Assembly (NCBI RefSeq): GCF_963921235.1
Contig: NC_086097.1
Span: forward strand, 168,580,001 to 168,644,000
Reading direction: 5' to 3'
Length of the DNA: 64,000 nucleotides
Origin: Mobula hypostoma
Lineage: Eukaryota
The notes beneath the pieces were generated by a model. That model saw nothing but the letters and a program-made list of their open reading frames with translations. It had not been told where the DNA came from and searched no databases. A program made the translations under genes and the position numbers. This document shows, one piece after another, positions 36,072-62,983 of the stretch. How positions within the stretch are numbered: position 1 is the stretch's first letter; each line of letters begins with the position of its first letter.

Positions 36072-36194
36072 ACACACATCAAAGCTGCTGGTGAACGCAG
36101 CAGGCCAGGCAGCATCTCTAGCAAGAGGTGCAGTCGACGTTTCAGGCCGAGACCCTTCGTCAGGACTAACTGAAGGAAGAGTGAGTAAGGGATT
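36072..36194 (-). mobile_element. 123-bp Penelope mini-insertion carrying an intact hammerhead
   Basis: Perfect 15-bp TSD tagaatctttagaca at 36057-36071 and 36195-36209. Nearly identical to 62416-62538. Confidence 0.9.
36131..36168 (-). ncRNA. Minimal type-I hammerhead ribozyme, identical to the copy at 62475-62512
   Basis: The plus strand cagtcgacgtttcaggccgagacccttcgtcaggacta is the same 38 nt as 62475-62512. Confidence 0.8.
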
Positions 36195-36244
36195 TAGAAT
36201 CTTTAGACAGCAGCTTACAACCCTACAACCTCTACCGACTAGAA

Positions 36245-37585
36245 CAGGGGTCCCCAACCTTTTTTGCACTGCAGACCGGTTTAATATTGACAATATTCTT
36301 GCGGACTGGCCAACCGGGAGGGGAGGTTGCTAACTTTCTCTCTGTGTTTACCCCAAGAAAGACTACCATGACCATGAAGCCTTGCACGGGCACCTGTGTG
36401 CGCATGCGTGACGTGCTCATACATTACATGCCGATTTTTTTCTACAAATCGTTTTTAGCAATTCTGATCAGTGAAACTACACTATACATACATTATTTCT
36501 ACTATATATAGGCTGTGTATTTATCATATCATTCCTGCTTTTATGATATGTTAGGGTTATTTTAGGTTTTATGTGTTATTTGGTATGATTTAGTAGATTA
36601 TTTTTTGGGTCTGGGAACGCTCAAAAAATTTTCCCATATAAATTAATGGTAATCGCTTCTTCGCTTTACGCCATTTCAGCACGAAAGGTTTCATAGGAAC
36701 GCTCTACCTTAGCGGGGGAAATATGGGACAAAGGCGGTCCCGTATGGGACAAAACCAATTTAGCCCAATATACGGGATGTCCCGGCTAATATGGGACAGT
36801 TGGCAACCCTTTGGCGGGGGGGGGGGGTGTTAATCACGACCAGAATATAGGTGATGTCACTTATAAGTTGCTAATACACTCAATTTCGTTTCTAAAAGGG
36901 TTTATCTAATGAATTTAATATTAAACATACAGCGCATATTTTCCTCGCATGAATATAGTCAATTATAAGTCACTTATAAGTCAATAGCATCACAGCATTT
37001 TAAGTAACATTTGGATATTAAACACATGGCGCATATTTTCCTCGTATGAACATATAAAATCATTGCAACACACCAATATCGCTGAATCAGTGGGAGCCCT
37101 AGGCTTGTTTCCCTGCAACAAGACGGTCCTATCGAGGGGTGATGAGAGACTGCGATACTCGAAGGGGATTCCTTATGTCCAGTCTATTCCGCAATTTTGT
37201 TTTCATTGCATTCATTGCAGAAAACCCCGCTTTGCAGAGATATGTTGGAAATGGAAACAACGTTTTCAGTGCTTTCCTGGCTATCTCAGGATATTCAGCC
37301 TTGACTTTGATCCAGAATGCTGGCAGAGATGTTATGTCAAACATGCTTTTCAGCCCACCGTCATTTGCAAGCTCGAGGAATTGATCTTCTTCCCGCGCTG
37401 ACATGGATGATGCATGAATAATGACCTCGCGTGCGTTCAAGTTCAATAGTGCTTGACAAGGAATGAGGAAAGGTGCAGCTGACTCATATCATTTCATATC
37501 GCCAAATCATATTGTTTCCTTGCAGCCTGGTAGCACATGCTTTGCAGCTGGTACCGGTCCGTGGCCTGGTGGTTGGGGACCACTG
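36245..37585 (-). mobile_element. Non-autonomous hAT (Charlie/Buster-type) DNA transposon
   Basis: TIRs caggggtccccaacc and ggttggggaccactg, perfect 8-bp TSD gactagaa. 37129-37446 encodes FWIKVKAEYPEIARKALKTLFPFPTYLCKAGFSAM...KTKLRNRLD, a hAT dimerisation-domain remnant. Confidence 0.93.
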
Positions 37586-38571
37586 GACTAGAACAACAAG
37601 GGCAGCAGAAGTATGGGGAGTGCCTCCACCTGGAAGTTGCCCTCCAAGCCCCACACCATATTGCTATCATCTCACTGTCACTGGGTCAAAATTCTGCACA
37701 GCTCTCCCTAACAGCAGTGTGGGTGGACCCACACCTCAAGGACTGTAGCAGCTCAAGAAGTTAACTCACCACCACCTTCTCAAGGGCAACATGGGATGGA
37801 CAATTAAATGCTGGCTCAGCCTGTGAAGGGTATATCCCTTGAATGAATAAAAGAAGATAAATTCTACTGGATATTGTTTATTTCTTCACATTTAAAAATT
37901 TATTTTCTTTAGAGTAAAATGTAACAATGGACATTTTCATTGCAGCAGAAATTTGACCAACTATGTCTATGGTTAGTCACCTAGCAACCCTAACATTCCT
38001 GTATCATGGAGACACAGGTTACCACTGCTCCCAGGTTAGGCACTTTGTGGAGTACTGCACTGAACCCGCATCAGTTGTCCCACAGGCACCGATTGTTGGA
38101 GGCTCCTGTGTTCACCAGACATTCTGGATGGGACGCCTCTGAGGGAGGACAATTACCGTTTTCATTCTTCAGGCTAACCCTTGCGCCTGCATGGAATTCA
38201 CTCCACACCACCCTCCCCACCAACAACCACTCGGTTCTCCAATTCCACCCTCAGGGGCTCCAAAGTCCCAAACATTCATGCTGCGATTCTAAATGTGACA
38301 CCATGACAATCTGTCAGTGCTGAGTTCCTATTTGCTGAAGTTAATTTGCTCCATTCTTAGAACTAAATTGGTCTGTATCATTCTTATAACAGGTTGTAGA
38401 GGACCCTGAAGATACACACTTAACATTTCAGGAACAGGTTCTTCCCCTCCAACATCCGAATTCTGAATGGACAATGAACCATGTGCACTACCTCACTTTT
38501 TTTTTGCTCTTTTCTCACTACTTACTTTTATTTATATACGTATAGAGATAGATAGACACACACACACACAC

Positions 38572-39100
38572 GATACTGACGGACTTTTACCGCTGTACCA
38601 TTGAGAGCATACTCACCAACTGCATCTCAGTGTGGGATGGCAATTGTCCCGTATCAGACTGCAAAGCACTCTAGCGTGTGGTGAAAACTGCCCAGCGGAT
38701 TATCGGCACCCAACTGCCCACCATTGAGAACATCTACCATAAATGCTGCCTGGGCAGGGTGAAAAGCATTATCAGGGATGCATCTCACTCTAACCATGGA
38801 CTCTTTACTCTCCTCCCATCCGGTAGGCGCTACAGGAGCCTCCACTCCCGCAGGCACAGGAAGAGCTTTTTCCCAGAGGCTGTGACCCTGCTGAACCTCA
38901 CATCACAGCGCTAAGCAGTATTGCACCCATATTGTACTGTCTCAGTACTTTTATATTTGTGTGCTGTAGCACTGACTTTTTATTCGCAGTTATTTTGTAA
39001 ATAACACTATTCTTTGCATTTCTGGTCAGATGCTAGCTGCATTTCATTGGCTTTGTATCTGTACTCAGCACAATGACAATAAAGTTGAATCTAATCTAAC
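38572..39100 (+). mobile_element. Rex1/Babar-type LINE 3' fragment
   Basis: VKTAQRIIGTQLPTIENIY...LFTLLPSGRRYRS...SFFPEAV. Tail aataaagttgaatctaatcta. Confidence 0.85.
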
Positions 39101-39667
39101 TACATCTTCTTGTAATTTATAGTTTTTAAAATTATGTATTGCAATATACTGCTGCTGCTAAGCAATAAATTTTACAACATACTGCATGCCTGTGATATTA
39201 ACCCTGATTCTGATTCTGAATCCAGGCAGCACAATATAAACCACACCTGTATCCACTCCAAGTCTTCCACATCCTTCCTGTAATGATGCAACCACAATCT
39301 CAATGATATATCGAAGGAATTAAATGAAACAGAGGTACATGCAGAGCATAATCAGTAGAATGGCCTCACTCGTGCAGATATCCAATGTCGGAGCTGTTAA
39401 TAATAGACCTTATTCCACTGGCCTGATAAGACATAGGATCTAGGCCATTCCCATTGAGTCTGATTGCCCACTGACAATCTACTGACAACCAACAACAGCC
39501 ACCCATTATTTTATTTTAAAAAGAGGACATGTTTGTCATGAATGTAAACAGGATAGTGTTGTGTAATGAGAGACTTCTCATGTTTATCCAACAAATGAAA
39601 GTCCATCACATAAGGTAAAAGCTACAATATGTCAAGCAAGAGAGGGTCATTTGAAATGTGGACTCAC

Positions 39668-39898
39668 CATCATCACATGTTTAAAGTTCCTTATCGTGGT
39701 AATTTCTTTCTGTTCGTCCTCTTCGTCCTGACCATCATACCCTTCATCCAGGCTTCCTTCAGCTGTCAGCCCTTCATCCAGGATATTTGTCATGCGGTCT
39801 ATCAAGTGCTCCAGAGGTGGGCTGAGCTCCCGTTCTTCATTGTCCTTCAGGCCCCAGTCCAAGGCCTTATAAACGAGGATTCCCACAGATTCGATCAC
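39668..39898 (-). CDS. spire1: Spire-family (SPIRE1-like) internal exon, KIND domain, 231 nt/77 aa: [36 protein letters not shown]...RNFKHVMM
   Basis: Matches recalled vertebrate SPIRE1 [34 protein letters not shown]. Acceptor cctcatag, donor ATG|gtgagt, phase 0-0. Paralogue assignment uncertain. Confidence 0.95.
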
Positions 39899-42800
39899 CT
39901 ATGAGGATTGGGGGGAAAATCTGGATTAGAAGGGCAACATAAAACACCATTGTGAAGCAAAGCTGATGGGGAAGAGGCAATTTTGAACCTCAGAGTCATA
40001 CAGCACAGAATACAGAAACAGAATTCTTGGCCCAACTGGACCATGGTTCCCATCTATTCTTTTGCCAAGATTTGGCCCATATGCTCAATAAACATTTCCC
40101 ATCCATGTACCTGTCAAGTTCAACCTCAAGTTTAATTGTCAGTAGATCAAACATGAGTACAGCCCAACGAAACACTGCGGCTAAGATGCAAAAACAGTAC
40201 CAACAGTCACACATTGCACAAGGCACATATAAGATAGCAAGCACATATAAATATCAGGAAAATACAGTCACACAAATATTATGCAGTCCAAGACCGAGTA
40301 GTTCATGAATGTTGCAGTAGACTGCAGTTGAACACAATACAGCTTGTCTTCTGCTGAGTGAACACTGGGGGCAGCACAGCACTGACTCCAGTTTACGTGC
40401 TGTGCCGCACCAACTCTGGCGCCTCTCTCTGGCCAGCTGTAAAAACACGACGACTGAGGCCTACTCCTCACCACGACCAAGGCCACACGGCTCCCCTGCC
40501 ACCCGCCCCAAGTACAATTAAAATATTAATATACCTGCCTCAACCACTTCCTCTTGCAACTCATTCCATTTACTGATCATTGTCTAGGAGAAAATATTGC
40601 CCCTCAGGTTCCTATTAAATCTCTCCCCTCTCACCTTAAACCTATGCCTTCCAGTTCCTTATCCCCTAACTCTGTGGAAAAAGATCCCATCTAAACCCCA
40701 CATAACTTTATACACTTCTGCAACTTCAGAATTGGAACCAGGCTTATTATCACTGACATTACTGACTTGTGGTAGCGTACCGTGTAGGCATAACAAATTA
40801 TAAGCTACAGTAACAGTAAATAAAAGTGCAAATGAGGAACAGCGATGTAGTGTTCAGGAGTTCGCGGATCAATATCACCCCTCATTCTCCTATACCTGCT
40901 CAACCTCTCTCCATAGACCCTTGACTCCCAGCAATATTCTCTCAAATCTCCTCTGCACTCTTCCCAGCTTAATGAAAAACCGAACACAGTATGCCAAATG
41001 CAGCCTCGCCAACATCTTGTCCAATTACAAACATAAAATCCCAAGTCCTGTACTCAGTGCCTGGACTGAGAAAAGCTGGCATGCCTGAAGTGTTCTTCAA
41101 CATACTGTCTAGCTGCAACATCACTTGCAATGAACCTTGTCCTTGTACTCCTAGATGCCTCTGTTCTACAACACTCCCCTGGGCTTGGCCATTCACTGTG
41201 AAAGTCCTACCCTCGTTTGTCTTCCCAAATTATAACATCTCATGTTTATCCAAATTAACCTCCTGCCTCTTCCACCATTCCATTAAGATTGTGGCCAATC
41301 TGTTTATTAACTCATCTGCCTGCCTTGGTTTCATAACCCTTAGCTTAATTACAGTTCTAAAATCTGCAATTAACTGTACCCCTTCAGACACTTCACTCCC
41401 CTCACACCCCCCCCCCCTCAGTAGTTTTGGGGAGATTAACATCTCCTTGCACAGGACAAAATGTTCACAACATTTGACCTTGTGTCACTTAGTTCAAAGA
41501 CCTTTTCACCCTGGGATCTCTCATCATATGTCAGATCCAGAATTAATCTGCTACGACCTCAGGTACTGGTTCAGAAACCTGGTATGGGATGCACGCCGTC
41601 TAGTTTCACACCTTGTTTCACTATTGGACCCCTTTTTTCCGTCAGTATGAGTAAACATTTTAGGAAAGTTTAAATCATTTGCAATTCTGCTCGGAAAACT
41701 ACAGTGTGCGATGCATAAACAGAGCATTTTTCCCTCTGATTTTATTTGACACAGTACCATCTCTTGGAGATTCTGACAAAAAATAATACTATGTATATGA
41801 AACAAAAGGGAAGGAAAGCTCAAGGAGGAATCAACACATCCCACCGAGGGATCACGGGCATTAAAAAACAGGAAATGAAGGTGGATGGGTGGTTCTGTGA
41901 TGTGCTGGACTTGTCCACAAGGAATCTAGGAAGTAAAAGACACCATCACTAACAAACTCAGGAGAAAGTTTTACCCAGACAAGAATGCAGATCTCACTCT
42001 CTCTACGGGGTCAGAGGAGTCCAAAGCATTTAAGACATTTAAAGATTTTAAGGCCACTGGATTTATCCAAGAGGTTGCAGAAGATTCATAAGAAAGCTGC
42101 CAGAAATGGAGGGCTTGCCTTATAAGGAGAGGCTGTAGGCCAGGAGAGTTTTCAGTGAAGCAAAGGAATCTGAAGGGTGAGCTTACGGGAGCTATGTAAA
42201 TAAAGTGGATGGTCAGTCTACTTCCCAGGGTGGGGGAAATCAAAAACTATTCAGCATTGTTGCAAGGTGATTTAAGATGAGAGGGGAATGATTTAAAAGG
42301 AGACCAGAGGGGCAAGTTTTTCCACAAAGAGGATGGTGGGTATGTGGAACAACCTGTGAGAGGAAGTGGTAGGGGTGAGTAGAACTAAAATATTTAGAAA
42401 GATATTTTAGCAGGTTCATGATAGGAGAGGTTTAGAGGGATATAGGCCAAAAGGAATTAGCTCAGGACGGCACTGTGGTTGGCACAGATGAGGTAGATGG
42501 AAGGGGTTATTTCTGTATTGTATTACTCAATTACTCTACTACCGATGCTTCATTACATAACACACTGAAGGGTGAATCAACACACTGTATTGCCTGCTAA
42601 GATGTGCATTCCAGTCATTATAGTTAATGTTATTTCTGCGAATTTTCTTGAGGGACTGTGTATCAAAACAGACTGAAGAATGAACGGACTGAAGGGACAA
42701 GCAGATCGTGGTTATTGTGTGTTCACCCTTTCCCCAGGATCCTTGTCAAACTTACTAACATCAGTTATGCAGAATGCAAATGTGTCCTTCCGCCCAACTC

Positions 42801-43779
42801 ATCCATAATTGACCAAGAGACCCACCAACCTGCATTTGGCCCTTATCCCTCCAAACATTTTTTCTCCATGTACCCAAGTATAAGTCTTTTAAACACTGCA
42901 ATAGTTTTATTACCCTGGGACTCCTCTGTAGAGTTTCACATTCTCTATGTTCTCTAGATAAAACTTTGTTCTAAATTCCCTAGTCCTTGACTGCTATTGG
43001 TTATCAACTTCACAGAAAACAACTTCTTACAGGTACGATCATAGGACTGTACTAATTGCATCTGCCACTTTCTTACCAATTCACTGTATCTGTATCCTCC
43101 TGTACAGCTCACTTTCATCACCTGTAACAGATTCACTCATCTGCCAGAGTTTACATTCAAATACTGTGGCAAACAGATATATCAGGCAATGGAATTCATC
43201 ACGACCACAGCCTCCCACAACTCTAGGTAGCTGTTGACTATATTGTTATGCATACATGGGTCATCATCACAAACTCATACCCTTTGCTCATTAATTTTTA
43301 TAGATGCACCATAGAATGCATCCTTCCCAGATACACCACAGCTTAGTTCGACCTGTGATTGCAAGAAACTGCAGGGATTTATGGACACAGATTGGAATAG
43401 CACAGTAACCAGCCTCCCCTCTATGGACACTGTATATACTTCTTAATGCCTCGGTAAAGTAGCCAACATAATCAAAGACCCCACCCAACCTGGACATTCT
43501 CTACTCTCCCTTCAAGCACAAAACACAAAAGCATGAAAGCACGTATCACCAGGCTTAAGGGCAGAGTCTGTTCCATTGAGGCAGGAGGGGCCTTGAATGG
43601 TGCATCTATAAAAGTTGCTAGAAGGTCAAAGAAGTCATGCCAAACTTCTTTAGCCTCTTGAGGATGTTGTGTTTATCTTCAAAGGTGAGCATCTCACCGT
43701 GACACATCTTGCGAGGACACAAATGTATCCCTGCTCTGTTTGATAGAGTGCTATGACAGGAATCAGAATAAGAATTGTA

Positions 43780-45125
43780 AGAAGGTTTAATATCACTGGT
43801 ATATGTCACAAAATTATTGTTATGCAGCAGCAGTACGTTGTAATAGATAGTAATGAAAACTATAAATTACAATGAGTATATACAAATTGTAAATTAAATA
43901 AGTAATGTGAAAAGAGAGGGAAAATTACTGAGGAAGTGTTCATGGGCCCATTGTCCATTCAGAAATTTGATGGTGGAAGGAAAGAAGATGTTTCTGAAAC
44001 ATTGAGTATGTGTCTTCAAGCTTTTGTACCTTCCTCTTTGATGGTAGCCGTGAAAAGAGGGCATGTCCTGGGTGATGGGATCTTTAATGATGGATGCCGC
44101 CTTTTTGAATCCAGTTGATCTGAGACCAGGTGGAGAGCCAGTGAGATTGCATCTGCTGTAAACCTAGTGACAGGCAAATGGCGGTGTGGCCCTTGCTTAA
44201 GCAGGAGTTGTTTCTTGACATTACCAACCCCTCAAAGCACTTCATCACTGTAGATCTGAGTGCCACTGGGCGATAGTCACTGAGGCAGCTCACCCTGCTC
44301 TTCTTAGGCACTGGTATAACCGTCAGCCTTCCGAAACAGGTGGAAACCTCCGACTGCAGCAGTGAGAGACTGAAGATGTCCTTGAACACTACTGCCAGTT
44401 GGTTGGCATATGTTTTCAGAGCCCTCCCAGGTACACCATCAGGGCCTGACAACTTGTGACTGTTCACCCTATTGAAAGATGTTCTGATATCAGCCTCCGA
44501 GACACAGATCACAGGACCACTGGATGCTACCGGAATTCACAGATGTAGTTTTATTTTCCTTTTCAAAGCGAGTATAAAAGGTACTGAGCTCATCATTGCC
44601 ATTCATGATGTTAGATTTCATTCTGTAGAAAGTAATGGCCTGCAAAAAATGCCAGAGCTGGCGTGCATCCGATTGCATTATTAACTGCAATTGAAATGGT
44701 TCTTTTCACTCTTAAGATAGACTTCTGTAGGTTGTACCTGGACTTCCTGTATAGGGATCTCTGGTTTTGAATACCTAAGCAGATTATGAATCTCCTGGTT
44801 TGTCCACAGCTTTTGGTTTGGGTACATCTGGGATTTTTTCCAAAGGCAAACACTCATCCACAGAGGTTTTGATGAAGTTGGTGAAACTGTGGCCTTTTCA
44901 TTCAGACTTGAAGATGAATCCCTGAATATTGTCCAGTCCACTGACTCAAAGCAGCCCTGTAAGCACTTCTCTGTTTCCCTTGACCATACCATCTTGGTGC
45001 AGTGGTCAAGTGTGCTGGCTCCTCTGGTTCCACAGTAGATGCGTTGGTGGTAGTTCAGAGACTTCTTCAAGCTGACCTGGTTGAAATCTCCCGCAATGAT
45101 AGAGAAGGCATCAGTATCATACCTG
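43780..45125 (-). mobile_element. Decayed Rex1/Babar-type LINE with internal deletions
   Basis: IIAGDFNQ and TLDHC (APE endonuclease). SGPDGVPGRALK, DYRPVALRSTVMKCFE. Confidence 0.85.
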
Positions 45126-46780
45126 TCGATTCCTTGCTGGGTGCCATTAAACCTGAACTTGAACATGTTGTTGATGAGGCCGAATTTAGAGTACCGTGTG
45201 CAGTTCTGGTCACCTCTGAACAGGAGAGATATCAGGACCTCCTGCTGCCATGGCATTGGGGTTCAATCTACAAAAGGAGTGTGCCTTTAATGACTGAGCC
45301 TCAATGCCTGTCTCAGATCACTGCACCGCATACTTGCCCTTGATCACACAGTCTACCCTGTCATGGCCCTTGAACCTTATTTGTCCGACTGTACTACGCT
45401 GTCTCTGTAACTGTATTCTGAATTCGGTCATTGTTTTCCTTTCGCTAGTACTTGAATGTTCTTCTGTATGAAATGCTCTGTTTGGGTGGCATACAAAACA
45501 AAGCTTTTCATGCTATTTTGGTACATTTAACAATAATAAACTCATGACCATTTGGAGCCTGGACCAATCAGGGAATGGTACAGATTTGCTTTAGTGAGTG
45601 CTTCTGTGTGTGAACCACCTTAACAATGTGTCAATTTTTTTTGGCCATTTCAGAATTTTTCAGGGGTCCCCATTTAGACAACGACACAAAACATGGTGCT
45701 AGTTTAGGGTCCCCAAAAACAGAGGAAATTCAACATCTCAGCCAATCTGCATAAAGGAAAGACGGAAATGAATAGAGAGAAAAAAATTACAGAAACTTCT
45801 TTTTGTGACATCGCCTTGTGTCTCTACAGTACTGTGTTCACTGTGGTACAGGCAGATCCAGATCCAATTACAAATGTTTACAAAGTATTTGGACAGGTAC
45901 TTAGGTAGGAAAGTAGTAAAGGAATACAGGTCTAATGTGGGAAATGGGATTAGCCTGGATAGTCCACAGTATACATGGACAGATTGGGCTGACAAAGCCT
46001 GTTTCTGCATGTATGACATTATAAGAAGGGTAAATTTATCAGAAGCGAAGAATATATGGAGAATAATTTCAATGCAAACGATATGCTTGAAATGCATTTG
46101 AATCATTTATAACATTGCGATTGTCAGCATTGAATACTCCGCAATTAGTCAATCACCACCACCGTTTCTAGGAATAATTATGTCACAATTTGTAGTCAAC
46201 AACTTTCTAATTGTGAGAGAAAGAACCTGCATTTATTCGAAGTCGTACATGACAACATGCAGAACAATCTAAAGCAGTAAAATGCCAACCACATTACCCT
46301 GGATTTGGAATCACAGGTATATACAGACACATATAAGGTACATGATAAAGTTCCATCTACAAGACAGCTGCCTAAATCTGAAACTCATGTACTGAGGAGA
46401 TCAGTTAGGTGGCAGGTAAAAGTAGGCATCCAGTAGGGGGTATCTAGATGACCTTGTAGGACACAAACACTGGTTTGTCACAAGAGGATTTCTGCTTGGG
46501 TCTCACTTGTCCACTACATTTATCACTAACATAGTTAATGCAAGAGTCAACCAGATACCCAGGTTTTCAATTATACAAAGATTGATGGCATCGTAAATCC
46601 CCGAGATGACAGCTTAAAATTAAATAAAGGGCATTGATGATGGATTAACAGAGTGATTGAATTGGTGGCAGATGGATTTCCAAATATTCCTCCCTCTATC
46701 ATGGAGTGAAGAAGGATGGGCTAGAAATCCCAGAATATTTTGATACTTTCTCCAGTGTTACATGTTTAAAATTGGATTTA

Positions 46781-50607: not shown

Positions 50608-52767
50608 CCGATATCCTTCCATTCTCCATAAACTCACGTGCCCACCTAACATATTCTGTGACCGTGACAGTGCAGGAGCGAGGGTATGGGCCAAATCTGT
50701 GCCAGACACAGCAACAGCCAGAGCAGCTTGTGGCCCTGTAGACCATGAGTTTTGTACAAGGTGTGGTGTCTCATCTTCAAACACCCTCTTCCACAATCAG
50801 CCAAAGTCTGTGCTGGTGTATCAAAGGTGATAGTTCACTTCATTACTGATGCCTGCCTTCACCAAGTGGTGGCTCCCAAGATATAAGAATGAATCAAGTG
50901 TTTGACCCTGACTGGCAGATGATAATGTTGACAGAAAACCCAGGTCTTGTTGATGCACAGACACAAGGCTAATGGCCTATAAACATACTTCATACGTGGT
51001 GTGCTGACACCACGCAGGGCACAAAGAATCACAGGCCCCAGGATCCATCAGGGAGGTTGAAAGATTTGCACAGGAAGCCAGTGTTCAGGGTTGTATTCCT
51101 GGATTTGATAATTACTGCTGGAACCAAGGGGTGATAGGGGAGGTGAGGGAGCTGAGATCAGTAGGGGTTGGGATAATACTGTTCCACAGGAAGAGTACAC
51201 CACAGAGGGCTCCCCAACTAATTTCTACCTTTCCCCAGTGATGCCAAAGATGGGCTTGGCCACATTCCTATGCAATGTTTTATTCATGGAGTCAAACAAC
51301 ATAGACAGGGCTCCCCACACTCTTCCCAGTTTTTACCAATGCACCATAAAAAGCATCCTGTCTGGAATCATCACAGCTTGGCATGGCAACTGCTCTACCC
51401 AACGCCACAAGAATTTGCAGGGATTTGTGAACACAGCCCAATCTGTCAGGAAAACAAGCTATCCCTCCATTAACTCCACCTACACTTCCCGTTGCCTTGG
51501 GAAAGCTGCCATTGTAATCGAGGAACCCCCTCCCCCATCCCAGCCTCTCCCAATTATACAAAAGCTTGACAGCATGTCGAGGGCTTTTTCTATCCCAGCT
51601 ATGAGATTCTTGTACGGGCCTCTCGTATGTTAAACTCTCAACCTCCCAACCTACCTTGTCTTACTCCCTGCATCTTATTTGTCTACCTACACGCCACTTT
51701 CTCTGCAATGCAATATTATATTTTGTACTATAATAGTATAAAGTCACAAAATAAGCAGCCCTGGTTGAAACCAGTTTAACTCAATGTTACTTTTCACTGG
51801 TGAGGTTCTACCCTGCCATACTTCCTTCTCCTTTAATATAAAGCCTGTTGTAAACTAAATCACCTGACCGAACATAGGATCACTTAAAGGGTGAGAGCAT
51901 GGGGAGAGTGACCAAGCCAAGACTGAGCACTCTTAGAAGTTACTTTGGCTTTTGAAGACAAATCATGCAAACTTTAAACCAAAATGGTATTTGCATCCGT
52001 TTCCCCAGCTTGTTCTGTTGACTCTGGTATGAATAAGGCACAACCTATCCCCGTGACCTCAGATGTACTTGAAATTCAGCTGGTTTATTCTTCCAAACAC
52101 TGGGATGTAATGCACACAAAATCCTGCTTGGAGTGAGGAGTGAGGGCAAGCTTCTTTAGAGAGAATGCAGAAAAGATTCAAAAGGATATTGCCGGGACTG
52201 GATGACTTCAGCAGACTGGGACGGTTGCCTACAGCAAAGGAGACCAAGGAGTGACCTCAGAGGTTTATAAAATCATAAAGAGTACAAATAAAGTGTATCA
52301 TCATAGTCTTACTTCCAGAATCTCCTGTAAATCTAATCTCCTAATTTTAGGGTAAGTAGGGAAATATTTAGAATGGGTCCAAAGGGCAACATTGTCCAAG
52401 GTGATGAGTATGTGAAACAACCTGCAAGAGGAAGTCGTAGAGGTGGTTACAATTGAGATGTTTAAAATACATTTAAGCAGGTTAACAGAGAGGTTTAGAG
52501 GGATATAGGTCGTATGCAAGCAAACAAAACTAGCACAAGGTGGCACTAGGGTTAGCATTGATGAGTTGGGCTGAAAGGCCTGTTTCAGTGCTATATTACC
52601 CAATAACAAGTTGGCCAAAGACTGGACACAGGACCAAAAAGAGAAAACAAGTCATTTAAAAGATCCGATATCAGGAGATCACTGGGCACAGGCTGAACAG
52701 AAGACAGCTTTAAAAACTTGAGGTTATAATGGTAAGAGCAGCTCAAGATGCTGCTTGAAAAACATAC

Positions 52768-52779
52768 CTGCTCAAAACA
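52768..52779 (-). CDS. Candidate 12-nt Spire microexon TGTTTTGAGCAG (CFEQ)
   Basis: Strong acceptor ttttctctttttgtttttacag and donor CAG|gtatgt are 12 nt apart. Frame-preserving and upstream of the VIES exon. Confidence 0.4.
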
Positions 52780-53394
52780 CTGTAAAAACAAAAAGAGAAA
52801 ATTCAGTAGAGTTTCCAGCATTTCCATTTTGTAAAATATCATCTTAGACTACTTTATCTAATTTTATCTGTCTAAGTTTGGCCTGCCAGGCTGATCTCTA
52901 GTTTTCAATTAACAATACATTATATGAAGCTAAAAGCTAGTAACTACCAACAAGTCAGTTCAACTCGTCCTATCACAGACATTCCATTTGTTCTACACAT
53001 CACTCCCTCACCTTCTACCTTACTGAAAACTACCTTGCTTCATATCTTCAAGGTCACAAACCCAAAACTTTAACTGACCAGCTCCTTCTGTTTTTACTTC
53101 AGATTTCCAGCATCAGCATTTTGGTGGGGAAGGGGGGGTTGATTTCATGCCTAACACACAATACTAGGACTAATTGATAATTAACTAAAGTAAAAATCAC
53201 CTTCCAAAACCCCAAGGGTTTGGTGCTCAAGCTCTGGTTAGGAATAATTCTTCTCAGTGGATATGATATGTAGCTACAGTAAATGATGTGTAAGCAAAAT
53301 TTGGCTTAAGGTATTCTTCATAATCTTCAATAAGTCCTTTAGCCTCTTCAGCTGGTCACTATCATGGAGGTTGTTAACTGAAGCACTAAATTTT

Positions 53395-53570
53395 CGAGAT
53401 ATAGCACGGTAACAGGCCCTTTGGGCCCAATGAGCCCGTGTCACCCAGTTATACCATGTGACCAATTAACCTACTATCCTGTATGTCTTTGGAATGTGGG
53501 AGGAAACCGGAGCAGCCAGAGAAAACCCACTCGGTCACAGGGGAACGTGCAAACTCCTTACAGACAGCAG
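53395..53570 (-). mobile_element. V-SINE-type SINE, truncated
   Basis: tgtgggaggaaaccggagcagccagagaaaacccac core. Confidence 0.72.
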
Positions 53571-53924
53571 CTGTTCAATTTCACACTGATCACTAAACTG
53601 CATTGATAATAGGATTAATTGTTAATCAGAATCTTTGCAGATCCACAAGAACTAAGATGATAAGAGGCATAGATAGAGTGGACAACCGGTGCTTTTTTTT
53701 TCCATGGGCAAGAATAACTAAAACCAGAGGACATTCTTTCAAAGTGAGTGGAAGAAAGTTTAGAAGAGATGTCAGAGGTAGGCTTTATTAAACTGTGTGG
53801 CAGACGCTTGGGAAGAACTTTCAGGGGTGGTGGTAGAGGCTGATACACAAGTTCAAAGTTCAAAATAAATTTATTATCAGGTTTATTATCACTGACATAC
53901 ATCTGACATCACTGACAGCTGCTG

Positions 53925-55220
53925 ATTTGAAAAGACATAAGGTGGAGGTGTGTGTTTCATGATAAACTTTCAGTGGTGTTGCGGTGTGGTGGCTTTGTCA
54001 GTCTTGTGTTCCCCCCACCTTGAACACTTAACAGTCACAAGCCATCTATCCTATTTACCAAGGGAGGTTTCCTCCGTGATCCTGACCACAGTTTACATAC
54101 CATCAGTGACAGACTATGATCAAGCGCTTTGAGATACTGCATAATGCAGAAACTAAACAAGAAACAATCCACCTCGACACATTTCATATCACAGGCAGGG
54201 ATTTCAATCAGACTTGTTTGAAGAAACCCCTTCCCAATTACCATCAGCATATAACCTGTAATACACTAGATCACCGCTATACCAAGATAAGGAATGCCTA
54301 CCAATCCATGCTCAGATTGCACTTTCGGAAATCTAATCACTTGGCTGTCCTTCTCTACCTGCATACAGGCAAGGCTCCAGTCATTAGGACAAAGAGATGG
54401 TCTCAGGAGGTAGAGTAGAGGCTACAGGGTTATTTTGAGTTGATGGATAGGGGTGTGATCGAGCACTCATCTGTGGATCTCAGTGAATAAACCACAGTTG
54501 TCACAGACTTTATATAAACAGTTGTAGATGAATGTGTCCCCATAAAATCGTTTGGAGTCTTCCCCAACCAGAAACTCTGGATGAACCATGAGATCCACAA
54601 TCTGCTGAGGGCCAGGTCAGAGGCAGTCAAATCTGGTGACCAAGTAAGTTACAAGAGGTCCAGCTAAGATCTCTGGAAAGCCATGTCATGGGTAAAGTTG
54701 CAATTCTGGACTAAAGTTGAATCAATGAAGGATGCTTGACAGTTGTGGCAGGGCTCGAGTATATCACCTCTTACAAAGTAAAATCAAGCAACAAAGGCAA
54801 CAATGGGGCTTTGCTTCCAGATGAACTTCTGCTCGTTTTGACCATCAAAACACGGAGGAACCAACACGAACTCCCACAGCCCCCAATGATCCTGTGATTT
54901 CAATTTTTAGGGCCGATGTGTTAGCCACCTTCAGGAGAGTGAACCCACAGAGAGCATCCAGACCCGATGGGGTACCTGGCCGAGTACTAAAGCCACTTAT
55001 GGACTCACTTTCAAGGAATCTTCATCTCATGTTCTCTATATTTATTATTATTACCAATATTTCTTTCTTTTTGTATTTGCTCAGTTTGTTGTCCTTTGCA
55101 AACTGGTTGTCCAACATTGATTGTTTTTCATTGACTGTATTGTGGTTACCGGATTTATTGAGTATGCCTACAAGAAGGTGAATCTCAGCATTGTAAATGA
55201 TGACATACATGTGATTTGAG
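53925..55220 (+). mobile_element. Decayed Rex1/Babar-type LINE (endonuclease region)
   Basis: GRDFNQ, HQHITC.TLDH, FPNQKLWMN, SRPDGVPGRVLK remnants. Confidence 0.75.
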
Positions 55221-55639
55221 AATAAAATTTACTTTGAATTTTATCATGAAATTTGGCATTTTGAGGCAGTACAGTACACGACTTAAAAATGACTATAATT
55301 TACAAAATATATATATATATATATAAACAGTCCAAGAGAGGAATGTTGAGGTAGTGTTCGTGCACCATTCAAACATCTGATGGCAGAGGGGAAGAAGTTA
55401 GTCCTAAAACATTGAGTGCGGGTCTTCGAGCTCTGGCATCTCCTCCCTGATGGTGATAATGAGGAGAAGGTAAGTCCTAGGTGGTGTAGGTTGTGGGAGT
55501 GTGAAAGCACATGTCAGCAGGCTCTTGCTTCTTCCCCACTGCTGTCAGTCTTCTGACCCTCTCATCTCTTTCACATCCCCTGCCCACTGGTACTGTAGTG
55601 TAATCGAACAGCACCACATTGAGATACAGTACAATGTTT

Positions 55640-56275
55640 AACTTAGCAACACAGATCAAGCAAGTGTTGAAAGTGGAGTATGGCATGCTCGCCTTTGTCA
55701 GCTGAAGCACCAAGTACCAGAGCAGTACAGGAGTCCAGGGGCCTTGGTTCAGTCGCCTCCATTAATGGTTGGACCACAAATGGAATATTGCATGGAGTTC
55801 TTGTAGGAAGGATGTCATCAAATGAAGAGTCACGGTGCAGGAAAGATTCACAAGGATGTTGCCAAGACTGAAGGGCTTCAGTTATAAGGAGAGACTGGAA
55901 TGTTTGGGACCATTTTCCCAGGCGTGAAAGAAGCTGAAGGGAGACTTTATAGGGGTTTATAAAATCATGAGGGGCATAGATAGGGTAGATTGTCACAGTA
56001 TTGTTCCCAGGGTTGGGGAGACTAAAACTCAAAGGCATAGGTTTGAAGCAAGAGGGGAAAGTTGAAGGGAATATAAGAGGCTCAAATTTCTCCATACAGG
56101 TGGTAGTGGAAACGTGGACCGTTGCCAGAGAAGTGGTTGAGGCAGGTACAATTACACCATTTTAAAGGGATTTGGACAGATATATGGATAGGTAAGGTTT
56201 AGTGGAAATATGGGCAAAACAGTCTGATTCTGAATCTGGTCGATGCACTGGGCCAAATGGCCTGTTTCCATATTG
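55640..56275 (+). mobile_element. Decayed CR1 3' fragment
   Basis: gggagactttataggggtttataaaatcatgaggggcatagatagggt and a CR1 3' UTR. Confidence 0.75.
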
Positions 56276-57261
56276 TATCATTTAATGTAAACGAATGGAA
56301 ATCCCCCTTTCCCTGTTCATACAGCTGTGTAGTCAGGCTCCAAGGGTGACTGCTGACTGTTGCAGGGAATTCCATGAATCCTGGCACTTGGGAAAACAAT
56401 GACAGCTCGACAAAAGTCTTACTCATTGATTTCCTCCTTTAGGGAAGACATAAAACATTTATTTAACCTCGTTAATGTGAAAAAGATTTATTAAAGGATA
56501 TTGGTGTGAGTAGATTTGCTCAGGCAGTATTGTCTGCAGGGCCGGAGAGAGCATTCCATTCATTAAGAATGAAGCAAACACTGTCTTCAGCTCTCTACAG
56601 GAGGTCACCCTGTTCCACCGTAGCTCTGGGCAAAATGAGATGCCACACAGAATTACATCAAATTAACAGAAGCAAAACAGGTCAGCTGTCTGAATTGTTC
56701 TGCCTCCTCTATGCCGGTGCATCTATTAATTTCTTTCTCCCCATCCAATTTCTCCAGAGATCCATCCATTATATTCATGCACTGAGTAGTTATACATGCA
56801 TGAATAGCAATAACCCACTGCAAGAGCTCAGCAGGTCGAGCAGCATCTGTGAGACTTCCAGCAGATTGATTGTTGCTCCAGACTCCAGGAACTACAGTCC
56901 TGTGCATCTCCCTCTGTGTGAAGAGGCTTTCCCTCCAAGTTCCCCCACCACAAAAAGCATCCTATCCAGCACATCACAGAAACAAGCCTCCCCTCTGTGG
57001 ACTCTGTACACTTTTTAGCGCCTTAATAAAGCAGCCAGCATAATTAAAGACCCCACCACAGACATTCTCTCATCTCCCCTTTCCCAACAAGCACAAGATA
57101 CAAAAGGATAAGAAAATGTATCCATAGGCCCAAAAACTGCTTCTATCCCACTGTCATCAGACGCTCGAATGGACTGCTTTATGATAAGATGGACTCTTGA
57201 CCTCATAGTCTACCTCGTTATGATCTTGCACTTTATAGTTTATCGGCACTGAACTTTCTCT

Positions 57262-57660
57262 CACAGCACACACAAAATACTAAGGGAACTCAGCAAGTCA
57301 GGCAGCATCCATGGAGAGGAATAAACAGACAATGTTTTGAGCCAAGACCCACCATTAGGACTGGAAATGAATAACACAGAGGCCAGAATAAGAAGATAGG
57401 AGGAGGGGGAAAGAGCACGCACTGTTAGGTTAAAGGTGAGATCAGGTGAGGGGGAACATGGGCGGGTGGGAGCATAGGTAGAGGAGATAAAGGGCTGAAG
57501 AAAGAAAACAGTGGACCATTTAAGGAAGGGAAGCAGGAGGGGAACAAGAGGGAGGTGATGAACACCTGAGAAGAGAGGATTAAGAGAGTAACCAGAATGA
57601 GGTATGGAAAAAAGAGTGAGGGAGGGAGGGAGGAAATGAACAGAAACTGGAGAACCTGAA
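57262..57660 (-). mobile_element. Penelope-like 3' relic
   Basis: cacacaaaatactaagggaactcagcaagtcaggcagcatc terminus, decayed hammerhead at about 57326-57363, purine-rich body. Confidence 0.65.
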
Positions 57661-60600
57661 GTGATTTGCTGCACTTTGTCGTTAGCTTTTACACGTTATT
57701 CTGCATAGTTATTGTTTTACCTTGTTTTGTTCAATGCCCTGTATAACTTGATCTGTATGAACAGTGCGCAAACAAACATTTCACTGTATTTTGGTACATG
57801 ACAATAATAAGCCAATGACAATACTGGAATTGAACTCAAAGCCTCTTCTATCAGTGGCTATTTGCCCTACCTAATCAGCTATTCAACACATCACTCCTCA
57901 GCCCTGGCCTACGGGAGTGGCTCTTCCAAAGGTCTGATTGTATCATTTCAACTGAACTACTTCCCTTCCCCAAACCCCAGAACACTCACTTAGCTCTGCA
58001 CAGGATATGAATCTGATGACATTGGAGCAAATGTTGCCAGTGTTGGAGAAGGCTGGTGAGGAGGACAGACTGGGTGGACTGAGGTTGTCTGCAGAACAGT
58101 TTATGAAGGGGAGAGGTAATTAGTGAATGCAACTATGAGGTCAATAGGAAGATGCTTCTCTTTAAAACATGGCAGCAATATCCGGGAAAAGAATTAATTA
58201 CTGAAAGGAATGAAGAAGTGCAAAGAAAATCATTTCTCACCAAATGATTCCACCTCCTCTATCTCAAGGCTGTGAATTTAAAAAGATACTGGAAAAGTTT
58301 TTGAGGTGTGACAGGTGCATTAGATCAAGAAATGAGAAGGTTTTCTTGCTGCTACAATCAAGAGGGAGCCAGAAGAGCCTGAAATCTCACACAACCAGGG
58401 TCAGGAACAGCTACTTCCCTTCAACTGTTCAGTTCTCAAATGAACTTGCACAACCCTTTTCACTACCTCTGTATAGTAACACGATTGATCACTTTGCACT
58501 AAAAATGGACCGTTCAGAAATCAGAAATCAGATAGCAGAGAGGAAAGATGTTCCTAAAACATTGAGTGTGTGTCTTCAGGCTCCTGTACCTCCTCCCTGG
58601 TGGTAGTAAAGAGAGGAGGGCATGTCCCAGATGGTGAGGGTCTTTAATGATGGATGCCACTTTCTTGTGAGACACTGCCTTTGGAAGATGTGCTCATTGG
58701 TGAGGAGGGCTGTGCCCATGATGGACCGACTGAGTCTACAACCCTCTGCAGTCTCTTTCGAACCTGTGCAGTGGAGCTTCCACGACAGCAACGTAGGTCA
58801 TCCTCCCCACATCCTCATCCACCCGTCCCAGATTCTTCCACTCACCAGTACCCGAGAAGCAATTTACAGTGGGCAATTAACGCGCCAACCTGCCCATTTT
58901 TGGGAAATGGGTGGAAACCAGAGCGACCAGAGGAAAAAAAATCGATGTGGTATCAGGTAAAATATAACCTCCACACACACACATGCACACGCACGATCAG
59001 GACTGAACTGGTTGCTGCGATCTGAGACAACAACTCTCTACTGGCTCTGCCACAGTGTCCTCCCATGTTCTTCAAAACTGGATTAGTATTACTTGTGTCT
59101 GATTATACAGGTCCGAAGTGCAATGCTGTGCTGGAACAACATTGCACATTGGACCTGAATAATCAAACTGTATAGAAGCTCAGGACAGCTCAACTTTGCA
59201 ATTGCAAGGGATAAGAAGCAAATCGTTGTAAATCACAAAACTACATTTTTTATTTGTGCATCAGTGTAACCATTGGTACAGCAGCATTTTATTGTCAACC
59301 CCAAATTAAAATGGCACTGAGGAAGCTGTAATGAACAAGGTTCAAAGTGCAAGGTAAATTTATTACCACAGTACATATAGGTCACCATATTCTACCTTGA
59401 GATTCCTTTTTTGCAGGCATTTACAGGAAAATAAAGAAATACAATTGAATTTATGAAAAACTATAACAAAAATAACTATAAAAAACTGCGAAAGACAAAT
59501 TGTGCAAACAGTGGAAAATGTTAATAAACAATACTGAGTTGTAGAGTGCTTTAGAGTGACTCATTAGACTATTAAGTAGGTTCAGCATTATCCACACTAG
59601 TCCAGGAGCTTGATGGTTGTAGGGTAATAACTGTTTCCGATCCTGGTGGTGTGGGCACTTCCTGCCCGCTGGTAGTAGCAAGAAGGGAGCATGGCCTGGA
59701 TGATGGAGGTCTTTGATGATGGATGCTGCCTTCTTGTGGCAGCGCTCCTTATAACTGTACTCAGCGATGGAGAGGGCTTTGCCTGTGATGGACTGGGCCG
59801 TATCCACCACTTCTTGTTGACTTTTCCATTTCTGTGCATTGGTGCTTCCGTATCAGGTCAAGGTGAAACCAGGCAGGATGCTTCCCACTGTGCATCTATA
59901 GAACTTTGTCTTTCATTGGACTTAAACAAATGTGCAATTGGCCAACCAAGTTCATTGTCAAACTAAACAATCTTGTTCCAGGCTTCTTTTGGTTAATTGA
60001 GACTCCCCAGTTACTGTGGTGGGATTCACAATTATATTTGTAGCTCACTAGTCCAAGTCTCTCTGCTCTTATAACCATTTAGTCAAGGAACTTCTAGATC
60101 TTCATTATTAGACCACAGCACGATAACTCCATAGATCACGCTCCTCAGTAATAAAATGTTCCAGTTATGTGTTCATACTCAGAAAGCCCTTTTGCTGTTT
60201 AAGCCTCCCAAGCTACCTTTCTCAAGTGATTAGTTAAAAAAAGTTTTCAAAACTACAAAAGGGACTAAACAGAGCACACCACTCTGCTTAGGGATCTAGA
60301 TTTACAGTCACTATTAATAGAACCAAATGGATATACGAAAAAAATTATTTTCATGCAGTTATGATTTGAAATGCACAGTCTGAAAGGGAGCTTTTAACAG
60401 ATAATTGGATCATGTGTACATTACAAAGCAGTGGGGAAAGAACAGCTTGTAGGCCAATCAGCCAAGGAGGGGTGAATGGTCTCCATTCAAGCCGGAACAT
60501 TTCTACGATTTGTCCTTCCCACCTAATATTCACTTCGCTCTCCCACCGCTCCACATCTCCAAGGTGGGGAGTTCCCTATTCAGCCAATTCTCCGGGTAAA

Positions 60601-60679
60601 GTGATTTTGTCCGCTTTCTTTATTGGACTTAATTGGTACTCTCCTGTAGGGGTTTATAGGGGATATGGGAGAAAACAAG

Positions 60680-61550
60680 AAATAAATTAGGTGGACCAAA
60701 ACAGGCCATAAAATCACTGTGGCAAGGAGGATTAATGAGAATCTAAAACCTTTTATAAGTATATTAGAAGTAAGAAAGTAGCTAGGGAACAAGAAGATTC
60801 CTTCTTAGGCCTCTGAAGGTATCCATGTGTAGAGCCAGGAAATACAAGCGAGATTATAAATAAATATTTCTCATCTGTTATTTGCCAGAGGAAGGGCATG
60901 GATGCTGGAGAGTTGAGAAAGGGAGAGGCTGATATTCTGGAGTATGACTGTATCAGGAAGGAGGAAATGCTAGGAATACTGGAGCACATTAGGGTGGATA
61001 AATATCCAAATCTACCGCAGGGAAACAAGGGAGGAGATTGCTGGGGTTCTGTAAGAGACTACTACATCATGGGTGAGGGACCAGAAGATTGGGGATTGAT
61101 AAAATCAAACTCTTGTTCAAAAGAGGGCAACAGGGATGAGCCTGGAAACTAGAGGCCCGTGCAACCTATATCAGTGGCACTCATAGAGAAGGTTCTGAGG
61201 GACAGGATTTATGCTCATTTGGAAAGCTGGGCAACGATTCGGAGGATACAGAATGGTTTTGTGCAGGAGGAATTGTATCTCAGAAATCTGATTGAATTGT
61301 TTTGAAGTGAATTGGATGACAGCAAAGCAGTAAATGTGGTTTATGAGAACTTCAAAAAGTTTTTTGACAAGGTCCTGCACAGTATGCACAAGAGATCCTC
61401 AGGACCCAATGAGGGTAGCAGTGAATACCATACTGCCTGCAAATCTGTAACAAGTGGTGAACGACAGGGATTAGTACTGGGGCCTTTGTTATTTGAAATA
61501 TAAATAAATGAGATGAGAATGTAAGAGGTCCGATTAGTGAGTTTGCACTA
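60680..61550 (+). mobile_element. Highly decayed CR1 ORF2 relic
   Basis: IRVDKYP, GPEDW, EPGN*RP, KAVNVVYENFKKFFDKVLH and QGLVLGPLLF remnants. Confidence 0.75.
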
Positions 61551-62411
61551 AAACCTCAGTCTCCTACATTCAAAGGAATAAAGACCTAAACTGCCCAGTC
61601 TCTCCCTAGAACTCAGGCCCTCAAGTCATCACTGAATCCCATTGCATGAACATTCATAGAAACATAGAAAATAGGTGCAGGAGTAGGCCATTCCTCCCTT
61701 CGAGCCTGCACCGCCATTCAGTATGATCATGGCTGATCATCGAACTCAGAACCCTGTACCTGCCTTCTCTCCATACCCCCGGATCACTTTAACCACAAGG
61801 GTCATATCTAACTCCCTCTTAAGTATAGCCAATGAACTGGCCTCAACTGTTTCCTGTGGCAGAGAATTCCACAGATTCACCACTCTCTGTGTGAAGAAGT
61901 TTTTCCTCATCTCGGTCCTAAAAGGCTTCCCCTTTATCCTTAAACTGTGACCCCTCGTTCTGGACTTCCCCAACATCGGGAACAGGCATCTAGCCTGTCC
62001 AATCCTTTTAGAATTTTACACGTTTCAATAAGATCCCCCCCTCAATCTTCTAAATTCCAGGGAGTATAAGCCTAGTCGATCCAGTCTTTCTTTATATGAA
62101 AGTCCTGCCATCCCAGGAATCAATCTGGTGAACCTTCTTTGTACTCCCTCTATGGCAAGGATGTCTTTCCTCAGATTAGGGGCCTAAAACCGAACACAAT
62201 ACTCCAGGTGTGGTTTCACCAAGGCCTTGTACAACTGCAGTAGTACCTCCCTGCTCCTGTACTCGAATCCTCTTGCTATGAATGCCAGCCTACCATTCGC
62301 CTTTTTTGCCACCTGCTGTACCTGCATGCCCACTTTCAATGACTGGTGTACAATGACACCCAGGTCTCGTTGCACCTCCCCTTTTCCTAATCGGCCACCA
62401 TTCAAATAATA

Positions 62412-62983
62412 AGCAACACACATCAAAGTTGCTGGTGAACGCAGCAGGCCAGGCAGCAACTCTAGGAAGAGGTACAGTCGACGTTTCAGGCCGAGACCCT
62501 TCGTCAGGACTAACTGAAGGAAGAGTTAGTAAGAGATTTGAAAGTGGGAGGGGGAGGGGGAGATCTGAAATGATAGGAGAAGACAGGAGGGGGAGGGATG
62601 GAGCCAAGAGCTGGACAGGTGATTGGCAAAAGGGATATGAGAGGATCATGGGACAGGAGGCCCAGGGAGAAGGAAAGGGGGGAGGGGGGAAAACCCAGAG
62701 GATGGGCAAGGGGTATAGTCAGAAGGACAGAGGGAGAAAAAGGAGAGAGAAAGAATGTGTATATATAAATAAATAACAGATGGGGTACGGGGGGAGGTAG
62801 GGCATTAGCGGAAGTTAGAGGCGTCAGTGTTCATGCCATCAGGTTGGAGGCTACCCAGATGGAATATAAGGTGTTGTTCCTCCAACCTGAGTGTGGCTTC
62901 ATCTTTACAGTAGAGGAGGCTGTGGATAGACATGTCAGAATGGGAATGGGATGTGGAATTGACATATCAGAATGGGAATGGGA
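62412..62983 (-). mobile_element. 5'-truncated Penelope-like element (GIY-YIG endonuclease C-terminus, 3' region and hammerhead) nested in a CR1
   Basis: 62960-62805 translates to NSTSHSHSDMSIHSLLYCKDEATLRLEEQHLIFHLGSLQPDGMNTDASNFR*, resembling a PLE GIY-YIG C-terminus. TSD attca(a/g)ataata at 62400-62411 and 62984-62995. Confidence 0.85.
62475..62512 (-). ncRNA. Minimal type-I hammerhead ribozyme in a Penelope-like element
   Basis: Minus strand reads UAGUC-CUGACGA-AGGGUCUCGGCCU-GAAA-CGUC^GACUG. Core boxes CUGANGA and GAAA, a GUC triplet, stem I UAGUC/GACUG, a stem II hairpin, and palindromic ACGU in place of stem III. Confidence 0.8.

Follow-up and report, generated by a model that had tools for sequence, protein, structure and literature searches.

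Hammerhead Ribozymes of Retroelements

Minimal type-I hammerhead ribozymes (min-HHR) found in pLTRs of the Penelope-like elements, or PLEs, of metazoans form an already published class (Cervera and De la Pena, 2014, PMC4209133). As far as the consulted text of that paper goes, monomers are inactive, and dimers and trimers are of low activity; according to its title, the paper of Lunse et al. (PMC5785218) reports cleavage of PLE hammerheads in dimeric form. The searched portions of the main text and supplement of PMC4209133 name no cartilaginous fish, and a literature search of incomplete coverage, without Repbase and Dfam, returned no description in sharks or rays of the PLE family treated here.

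Non-LTR retrozymes likewise have type-I hammerheads derived from PLEs (bioRxiv 10.64898/2026.07.22.740005). In the sections of this preprint that were available, retrozymes are reported in the single chondrichthyan genome sampled, 42–44% of the Xenopus copies overlap introns, and one of nine Xenopus retrozyme dimers cleaved. The hammerheads of amniote RECK, CTCL, and DTNB are also sense, intronic, type-I, and of probable retroelement origin; the parts seen of PMC6155905 describe them as conserved across lineages and as having tertiary contacts.

Two hammerhead motifs, A and B, are found in a ray genome in the window, i.e., the whole 64-kb stretch of DNA analysed (Table 1). Whereas retrozymes, as described in the accessible preprint text, are head-to-tail tandem arrays, A and B are solo insertions having their own target-site duplications. 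Unlike the amniote hammerheads, the ray motifs are minimal and of very high copy, and A is apparently absent in a relative diverged by ~6%. It is very probable that A and B are PLE terminal-repeat hammerheads from two independent, likely young, 5'-truncated insertions in two spire1-like introns, and that they are likely inert.

Table 1 Features of the window; positions count from the first letter of the 64-kb stretch
Feature	Position	Strand	Basis or remark
spire1-like coding exon, about residues 249-303, WH2 region	5605..5769	(-)	protein match
spire1-like coding exon, residues 221-248	9840..9923	(-)	protein match
Inverted pair of young pLTR tails without hammerhead core	15869..15978	.	family similarity
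spire1-like coding exon, residues 179-220	18920..19045	(-)	closes the intron containing copy A
Decayed family copy, antisense to Spire	32797..32880	(+)	same intron as A, 3.2 kb downstream
Copy A target-site duplication, second copy, 15 nt	36057..36071	.	identical to 36195-36209
Copy A, solo 5'-truncated PLE 3' end (pLTR tail), ~125 nt	36072..36194	(-)	similarity to B tail
Minimal type-I hammerhead, copy A	36131..36168	(-)	identical to copy B; core and motif match
Copy A target-site duplication, first copy, 15 nt	36195..36209	.	identical to 36057-36071
spire1-like coding exon, residues 102-178, KIND domain	39668..39898	(-)	between both hammerheads
Copy B, 5'-truncated PLE	62413..62983	(-)	ORF end, pyrimidine-rich 3' region, pLTR tail
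Minimal type-I hammerhead, copy B	62475..62512	(-)	letter-identical to copy A
PLE GIY-YIG endonuclease, C-terminal end	62808..62966	(-)	similarity to P0121

Sequence and Architecture of the Motifs

The two motifs lie 26,344 nt apart and are identical letter for letter on the minus strand, as a first-pass annotation of this DNA had stated; exact identity extends over 52 nt (36131-36182 = 62475-62526). The pattern CTGANGA-N6-30-GAAACGTC has two matches in the 64-kb window vs. 0.01 expected (100 shuffles). In both copies the CUGANGA ... GAAA ... UH core has no changes, being canonical at 14/14 scored positions (C3-A9, G12-C17), and the triplet is GUC. Motif A consists of a stem I of 5 bp, CUGACGA with an extra A, a stem II of 4 bp, and an ACGU palindrome. 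The minimum-energy structure calculated for the 38-mer likewise has a helix I of 5 bp, 4–5 bp being the class criterion. Between A9 and 10.1 the extra nucleotide is the 38-mer's A13 (-7.0 in this register, -5.6 in the alternative one), and stem III is replaced by the palindrome at 15.1-16.1 (A29 C30 G31 U32). C17 falls at 36136 in A and at 62480 in B, which puts the predicted cuts at 36136/36135 and 62480/62479, as in the annotation. Its assignment of the motifs to PLE-type minimal type-I hammerheads, an ACGU palindrome replacing stem III, is likewise supported.

The description of both motifs as intact holds for the core and is somewhat generous for stem II, which is closed in both copies by G10.1-U11.1 (11.1 of A = 36144) instead of the typical, non-obligatory G10.1-C11.1, a pair called "highly conserved" for the motifs of PMC4209133 in the text seen. 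Helix II is also shorter, 4 bp against the 7–8 bp of Schistosoma and 6 bp of D. virilis given there. The dinucleotide at 11.1/12 reads TG in nine of the 13 aligned copies, CA in four, and CG in none, which, judged from these copies, is the pattern of a decayed CpG. A literature search on the effect of a G10.1-U11.1 pair found no measurement, and when the terminal repeat was translated in a frame distinguishing C from T at 11.1 and compared with proteins, 16 candidates came up, none of them reaching E ≤ 10.

It is extremely improbable that the motif is no hammerhead at all and resembles one by chance. The Rfam hammerhead search proposed in the annotation gave no match at E ≤ 1 for the whole window and none at E ≤ 10 for 201 nt, the fold z-score of the 38-mer is only -1.2, and covariation across the 13 aligned, decayed copies is no better than in shuffles (359/500 at or above the observed value), a result uninformative for decayed copies; all three would fit a look-alike. 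Against it stand the 0.01 matches expected by chance and three traits described for PLE min-HHR: a nucleotide added after A9, a palindromic pair at 15.2-16.2, and placement in the pLTR. Rfam matches to miRNA, snoRNA, and lncRNA models are weak and far under gathering scores, and a degenerate motif scan over metagenome contigs gave no matches.

Two Insertions in spire1-Like Introns

The tails of A and B are 95% identical over 126 nt (6/126 positions differ). Copy B sits inside the RT region of a LINE and is flanked by a 13-nt target-site duplication (62984-62996 and 62400-62412, 12/13 identical). The window keeps only the last ~50 residues of the PLE ORF, and the 47-aa translation of 62808-62948 is 91% identical to P0121 of a devil ray; motif B follows ~290 nt past the GIY-YIG stop, on the ORF strand and within the PLE terminal repeat. 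A segmental duplication of the two sites is rejected since similarity ends at the element ends, as is a tandem retrozyme array, the copies being solo and having separate target-site duplications 26,344 nt apart. On sequence grounds, motifs A and B are assigned to the 3' terminal-repeat hammerheads of PLE insertions with target-site duplications.

On the minus strand lie four Spire coding exons, bounded by AG/GT, that agree at 97–100% with a spire1-like protein from a devil ray; this bears out the annotation in placing both motifs sense to Spire. Exon 39668-39898 separates A from B, so they are in different introns. Spire residues 1-101 are absent from the window, and the N-terminal exon(s) would lie beyond it; A and B therefore probably share one primary transcript, as had been supposed. 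At an assumed 3.8 kb/min, the intron holding B gains its 3' splice site only ~1 min before copy A is transcribed, and splicing takes 5–10 min (PMC2995048), so that A and B would be together on one nascent transcript for minutes. Splicing kinetics alone would leave room for a cis dimer in these few minutes. Introns cut by hammerheads still get spliced, according to the consulted part of PMC2995048, which reports Dye (2006).

Family Copies, Abundance, and Age

The PLE family has 17 matches at E < 1e-3 within 64 kb, ten sense and seven antisense to Spire (P = 0.63). Eleven of the 13 aligned copies, i.e., all but A and B, have broken cores with 2–7 core changes. The plus-strand arm of the inverted pair is 91–93% alike to the A and B tails and is antisense to Spire. 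Summed contig depth in run X1 is 1.1e7 for the motif vs. 13.9 for the single-copy flank contig; depth does not equal copy number, and the contrast shows a very high-copy family. Family depth is also very high in run X16, guessed to be RNA (DNA may be present). The ray family appears far more abundant than the 4,000–9,000 motifs of coelacanth and Xenopus given in the accessible text of PMC4209133.

The probability that all six A/B differences fall outside the motif is 0.11, and that of an identical run of at least 38 nt somewhere is 0.70. The 38-nt identity is nothing special, because it is expected (P = 0.11) for copies 95% alike, and the motif shows no identity excess; selection on the 38-mer was rejected on the same P value. 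Identity, orientation, and number are best read as the chance outcome for a young, very high-copy transposon, and no sign of selection is seen in identity, orientation, the broken cores elsewhere, or covariation.

The insertion site was compared for copy A only, in contigs of four of the 24 listed runs. In organism B, a contig differing at 13 places over about 590 nt of flanking sequence continues into copy A. In organism C (run X9), a contig differing at 34 places over about 557 nt ends its alignment at 36056, one base short of the target-site duplication, leaving 50 letters unaligned; this contrast speaks for a young insertion. The orthologous site is thus filled in organism B and, judged from the stop of this one contig, apparently empty in organism C, the relative ~6% diverged. 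Copy A is probably lineage-specific.

Folding, Dimers, and Cleavage

In folding models the hammerhead fold has a probability of 1e-4 to 2e-7 in its sequence context, and an upstream hairpin of about -10.5 kcal/mol pairs with the CUGACGA core. A double hammerhead has -11.5 kcal/mol vs. -22.0 for two monomers, the dimer being ~10 kcal/mol less stable, and the 4-bp ACGU helix contributes only -1.7 kcal/mol. Antisense copies gain from -35 kcal/mol (the one 3.2 kb away) to -80 kcal/mol on cofolding, compared with -6.9 for A with B. The models thus favour the core-hiding hairpin, and antisense partners, over the active fold and the dimer. Nearest-neighbour energies take no account of Mg2+, chaperones, or tertiary contacts, and working PLE hammerheads, too, would probably receive poor scores from them. 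The ideal-chain effective concentration is 0.03–0.15 uM at 26,344 nt vs. 20–80 uM at 400 nt.

The first-pass annotation had proposed that such motifs cleave efficiently as dimers and that A and B belong to a network of pre-mRNA cleavage. The first point is contradicted by the low dimer and trimer activity in the consulted text of PMC4209133. The second, by which A and B would pair in cis over 26 kb as a double hammerhead and, as a functional control seeded by transposons, cut the Spire pre-mRNA during its transcription, is very unlikely. The copies are identical, sense, and core-intact, they probably share a primary transcript (residues 1-101 lying upstream) for a time window of minutes, and amniotes are known to have conserved hammerheads in introns (PMC6155905, parts seen); yet they are in different introns, at the low effective concentration calculated for their distance and with the dimer disfavoured against two monomers, chance accounts for their identity, orientation, and number, copy A is probably lineage-specific, and PLE dimers are slow (PMC4209133, same text). 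The network is left unsupported.

The preferred reading, two young and likely inert insertions, would work as follows. In the parent element, as the literature suggests, a slow dimer between adjacent terminal repeats would process the element's own RNA. The copies would be identical by descent from one recent source element, and sense to Spire by chance. In the pre-mRNA each copy is predicted either to adopt an off state, its CUGACGA core occupied by the upstream hairpin, or to pair with antisense family copies, and to be discarded along with the intron; if a slow hammerhead did cut on rare occasions, splicing would likely not be disturbed. Against inertness stand the unmutated cores of A and B with their GUC triplet and their coexistence for minutes on one nascent RNA, and the abundance of the family could supply partners in trans.

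Background trans-cleavage, in which intact sense copies sometimes dimerise and cut at a low rate, having no host role and little effect on mRNA, is unlikely. It would fit the unmutated cores, a family depth that is very high both in DNA and in run X16 (guessed RNA that may contain DNA), and a dimer activity that is low yet real in the PMC4209133 text consulted; it is opposed by the weakness of the 4-bp ACGU helix, the off-state hairpin, the stronger antisense partners, and the G-U closing of stem II. That abundant intact intronic copies, partnered in cis or trans, cut ray nascent RNA at C17 genome-wide, Spire included, and so build up a transposon-seeded, concentration-dependent layer of intron cleavage, seems distinctly improbable.

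As it stands the finding matters little: one ray family is added to a published class of retrotransposon ribozymes, and such motif pairs must be common in ray introns. Scale is the one useful angle, if very many core-intact, dimer-type hammerheads lie in transcribed vertebrate introns. Ray nuclear RNA would be good material for asking about cleavage by PLE minimal hammerheads in vivo, a question left open by the 2014 defining paper in its consulted text (PMC4209133). A positive answer would mean that transposon relics cut host transcripts, and a negative one would show how the motifs stay off, e.g., by an upstream hairpin or antisense pairing.

The Close Relative P0121

P0121 comprises RT, a zinc finger, and GIY-YIG (Pfam PF01541, E = 4.6e-4), and carries YIDD, CX4CXXC, and a GIY-YIG with CXXC. 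It resembles the Neptune clade in its RT, a linker finger of the form CX2-5CXXC, and a GIY-YIG with two internal cysteines (bioRxiv 10.1101/2021.04.23.441226, as far as consulted). These Neptune characters are those of the relative P0121, the region being missing from the truncated window copy, and Neptune and Nematis are not formally separated by them. Truncated copies and inverted terminal-repeat pairs, described in the seen part of the same preprint, are also found in the window.

Hammerhead motifs and their parent elements

The two hammerhead motifs are letter-identical 38-mers on the minus strand, as the first-pass annotation had reported, and the exact match between them in the window reaches 52 nt. 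The claim of intactness also holds for the core, 14 of 14 scored positions being canonical in each copy, and the predicted cleavage bonds are those proposed earlier. The core pattern matches twice in the window (0.01 expected). Rfam, proposed with that annotation as a check, lists no hammerhead family for the whole window or for 201 nt around copy A, consistent with a motif that has no stem III; curated-model support is therefore none. The motif is real, its class is already known, and this member is new.

In translation, the first part of the insertion bearing copy B yields the C-terminus of a GIY-YIG endonuclease (91% identity over 47 aa to the devil-ray protein P0121). P0121 carries YIDD, a CX4CXXC linker and a GIY-YIG domain with two internal cysteines, the arrangement reported for Neptune and Nematis Penelope-like elements (PLEs) in bioRxiv 10.1101/2021.04.23.441226. 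Copy A retains just the final ~125 nt of the element found in B and is 95% identical to B. The target-site duplication is 13 nt for copy B (12/13 identical) and 15 nt for copy A. This structure places both hammerheads in the PLE terminal repeat, on the ORF strand. Their site and strand, the additional nucleotide following A9 and the palindrome all agree with the description by Cervera and De la Pena, 2014 (PMC4209133). The LINE remnant at 62–64 kb is the target into which copy B inserted. In two predicted stingray proteins (P0123 and P0125), a PLE endonuclease tail is fused to something unrelated, resembling ATP synthase subunit C in one and RNase H in the other; these fusions are probably gene-prediction artefacts.

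Positions of the motifs and neighbouring features in the window
Feature	Position	Strand	Remark
Hammerhead, copy A	36131-36168	-	Predicted scissile bond 36136/36135
Hammerhead, copy B	62475-62512	-	Predicted scissile bond 62480/62479
Copy B insertion	62413-62983	-	570 nt, hammerhead at its end; interrupts RT region of a LINE
Short tandem duplication, copy B 5' end	62925-62983	-	About 30 nt, at truncation point
Predicted core-masking hairpins	36151-36185; 62495-62529	-	Tract complementary to catalytic core
Spire exon	39668-39898	-	Part of KIND domain
LINE reverse-transcriptase remnants (Pfam RVT_1)	2706-4484; 16545-17054; 62831-63930	-
Inverted pairs of PLE terminal repeat (n=2)	15855-15978; 26273-26436
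High-copy repeat	36245-36810 and beyond		Begins ~35 nt away from the duplication of copy A; depth 1e5-1e6
Reading frame	37129-37488	-
Repeat family D4/D17	721-786; 29044-29109; 32097-32138; 53464-53529; 58875-58940

The host gene Spire

Four Spire exons with AG/GT ends were mapped on the minus strand (residues 102-178, 179-220, 221-248 and about 249-303). The closest relatives of the KIND-domain exon are devil-ray and stingray spire1-like proteins (95–99% identity), which marks the window as ray DNA. Residues 1-101 are absent from the window, in line with the earlier statement that Spire begins upstream of it. Copy B lies 22.6 kb upstream of the KIND-domain exon and copy A 3.5 kb downstream, so the two occupy different introns; they are independent insertions of a PLE, with one target-site duplication apiece. 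A short alternative N-terminus precedes the equivalent exon in P0017, a shark isoform, and an internal Spire start between copies A and B is therefore possible.

Family abundance and age of the insertions

Six of 126 positions distinguish copies A and B. All six would miss the 38-mer with a probability of 0.11, and some identical run of at least 38 nt between the copies has a probability of 0.70; the pair is not special. An iterated profile search found 17 family copies in the window at E < 1e-3, 10 on the Spire strand and 7 on the opposite one (P = 0.63). Thirteen of these were aligned, the four without the 5' part of the motif being omitted; 11 of the 13 have 2–7 core changes each, and covariation among them is not above shuffles. 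Stem II is closed by G-U in copies A and B, whereas G-C is conserved in the PLE minimal hammerhead class; no measurement of the effect of G-U closing was found in the literature. The closing-position dinucleotide is TG in nine aligned copies, CA in four and CG in none, a pattern suggestive of an ancestral CpG.

That the family is very abundant is clear from sequencing run X1, where summed contig depth is 1.1e7 at the motif vs 13.9 in unique flank, a ratio that does not give copy number. In a relative about 2% diverged, one contig runs into copy A. In another, about 6% diverged, one contig ends at 36056, the last base ahead of the target-site duplication. It has 50 leftover letters, as many as lie from the second duplication copy up to the next repeat boundary (36245), and its stop position fits an empty site. 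From these contigs, copy A looks like a recent, lineage-limited insertion.

Contigs of the family lose their match by the hundred at the outer boundary of stem I, 36166-36167 (X1, 638; X5, 459; X9, 420 + 145), with low agreement and long loose parts. These ends fit many short copies starting at the hammerhead 5' edge; they could also mark an older subfamily diverging upstream of that point. The end of the high-copy repeat near copy A and the reading frame at 37129-37488 resemble a DNA-transposon remnant; Pfam gave no match there. Family D4/D17 we take to resemble the V-domain of V-SINEs.

Predicted folding and competing partners

Folded with 20–200 nt of flank, the motif is predicted to adopt the hammerhead structure with a probability of 1e-4 to 2e-7, largely because an upstream pyrimidine tract is predicted to pair with CUGACGAAGGG in a hairpin of about -10.5 kcal/mol. 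The hairpin, predicted in both copies, would form ahead of transcription of the remaining ribozyme and may act as an inbuilt off switch for the PLE.

According to the first-pass annotation, copies A and B could pair in cis and cut Spire pre-mRNA as a dimer. The timing is compatible with this, since B's intron closes about 1 min before copy A is transcribed and splicing takes 5–10 min (PMC2995048). The location of the copies in different introns, with an exon between them, an identity expected by chance and the computed folds speak against it. Two 38-mers reach -11.5 kcal/mol as a double hammerhead vs -22.0 as two monomers; an isolated ACGU helix scores -1.7 kcal/mol. Ideal-chain local concentration at 26 kb is estimated at 0.03–0.15 uM, about 500x below that at 400 nt. 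Better partners are predicted among the antisense family copies of this pre-mRNA: the cofold gain is -35 kcal/mol with the one lying 3.2 kb downstream within A's own intron and -80 kcal/mol with a young antisense arm at 15.9 kb, vs -6.9 kcal/mol for A with B. A functional cis dimer is thus very improbable.

The folding models include no Mg2+, tertiary contacts or proteins and are uncalibrated against any active hammerhead, so they make cleavage less likely and do no more than that. Low-level trans-cleavage with no host role is unlikely, though less so than the cis dimer. In Cervera and De la Pena, 2014 (PMC4209133), PLE minimal hammerheads have no activity as monomers and low activity as dimers or trimers; a review describes very low rates, dimers included (PMC6765202), and one of nine Xenopus retrozyme dimers cleaved according to a 2026 preprint (bioRxiv 10.64898/2026.07.22.740005). 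As PMC2995048 recounts, splicing went ahead in introns cleaved by a hammerhead but was blocked by an HDV ribozyme, which is faster.

Very probably, then, the two PLE insertions are carried as passengers in Spire. Both copies would derive from one young source lineage, and in the parent element the motif would act as a slow dimer, formed by neighbouring terminal repeats, that processes the element's RNA; within Spire the copies would adopt the off fold or pair with antisense family members, and would be removed with the intron. The inverted terminal-repeat pair at 15855-15978 makes a 49-bp hairpin (90% complementary), possibly double-stranded RNA in a Spire intron.
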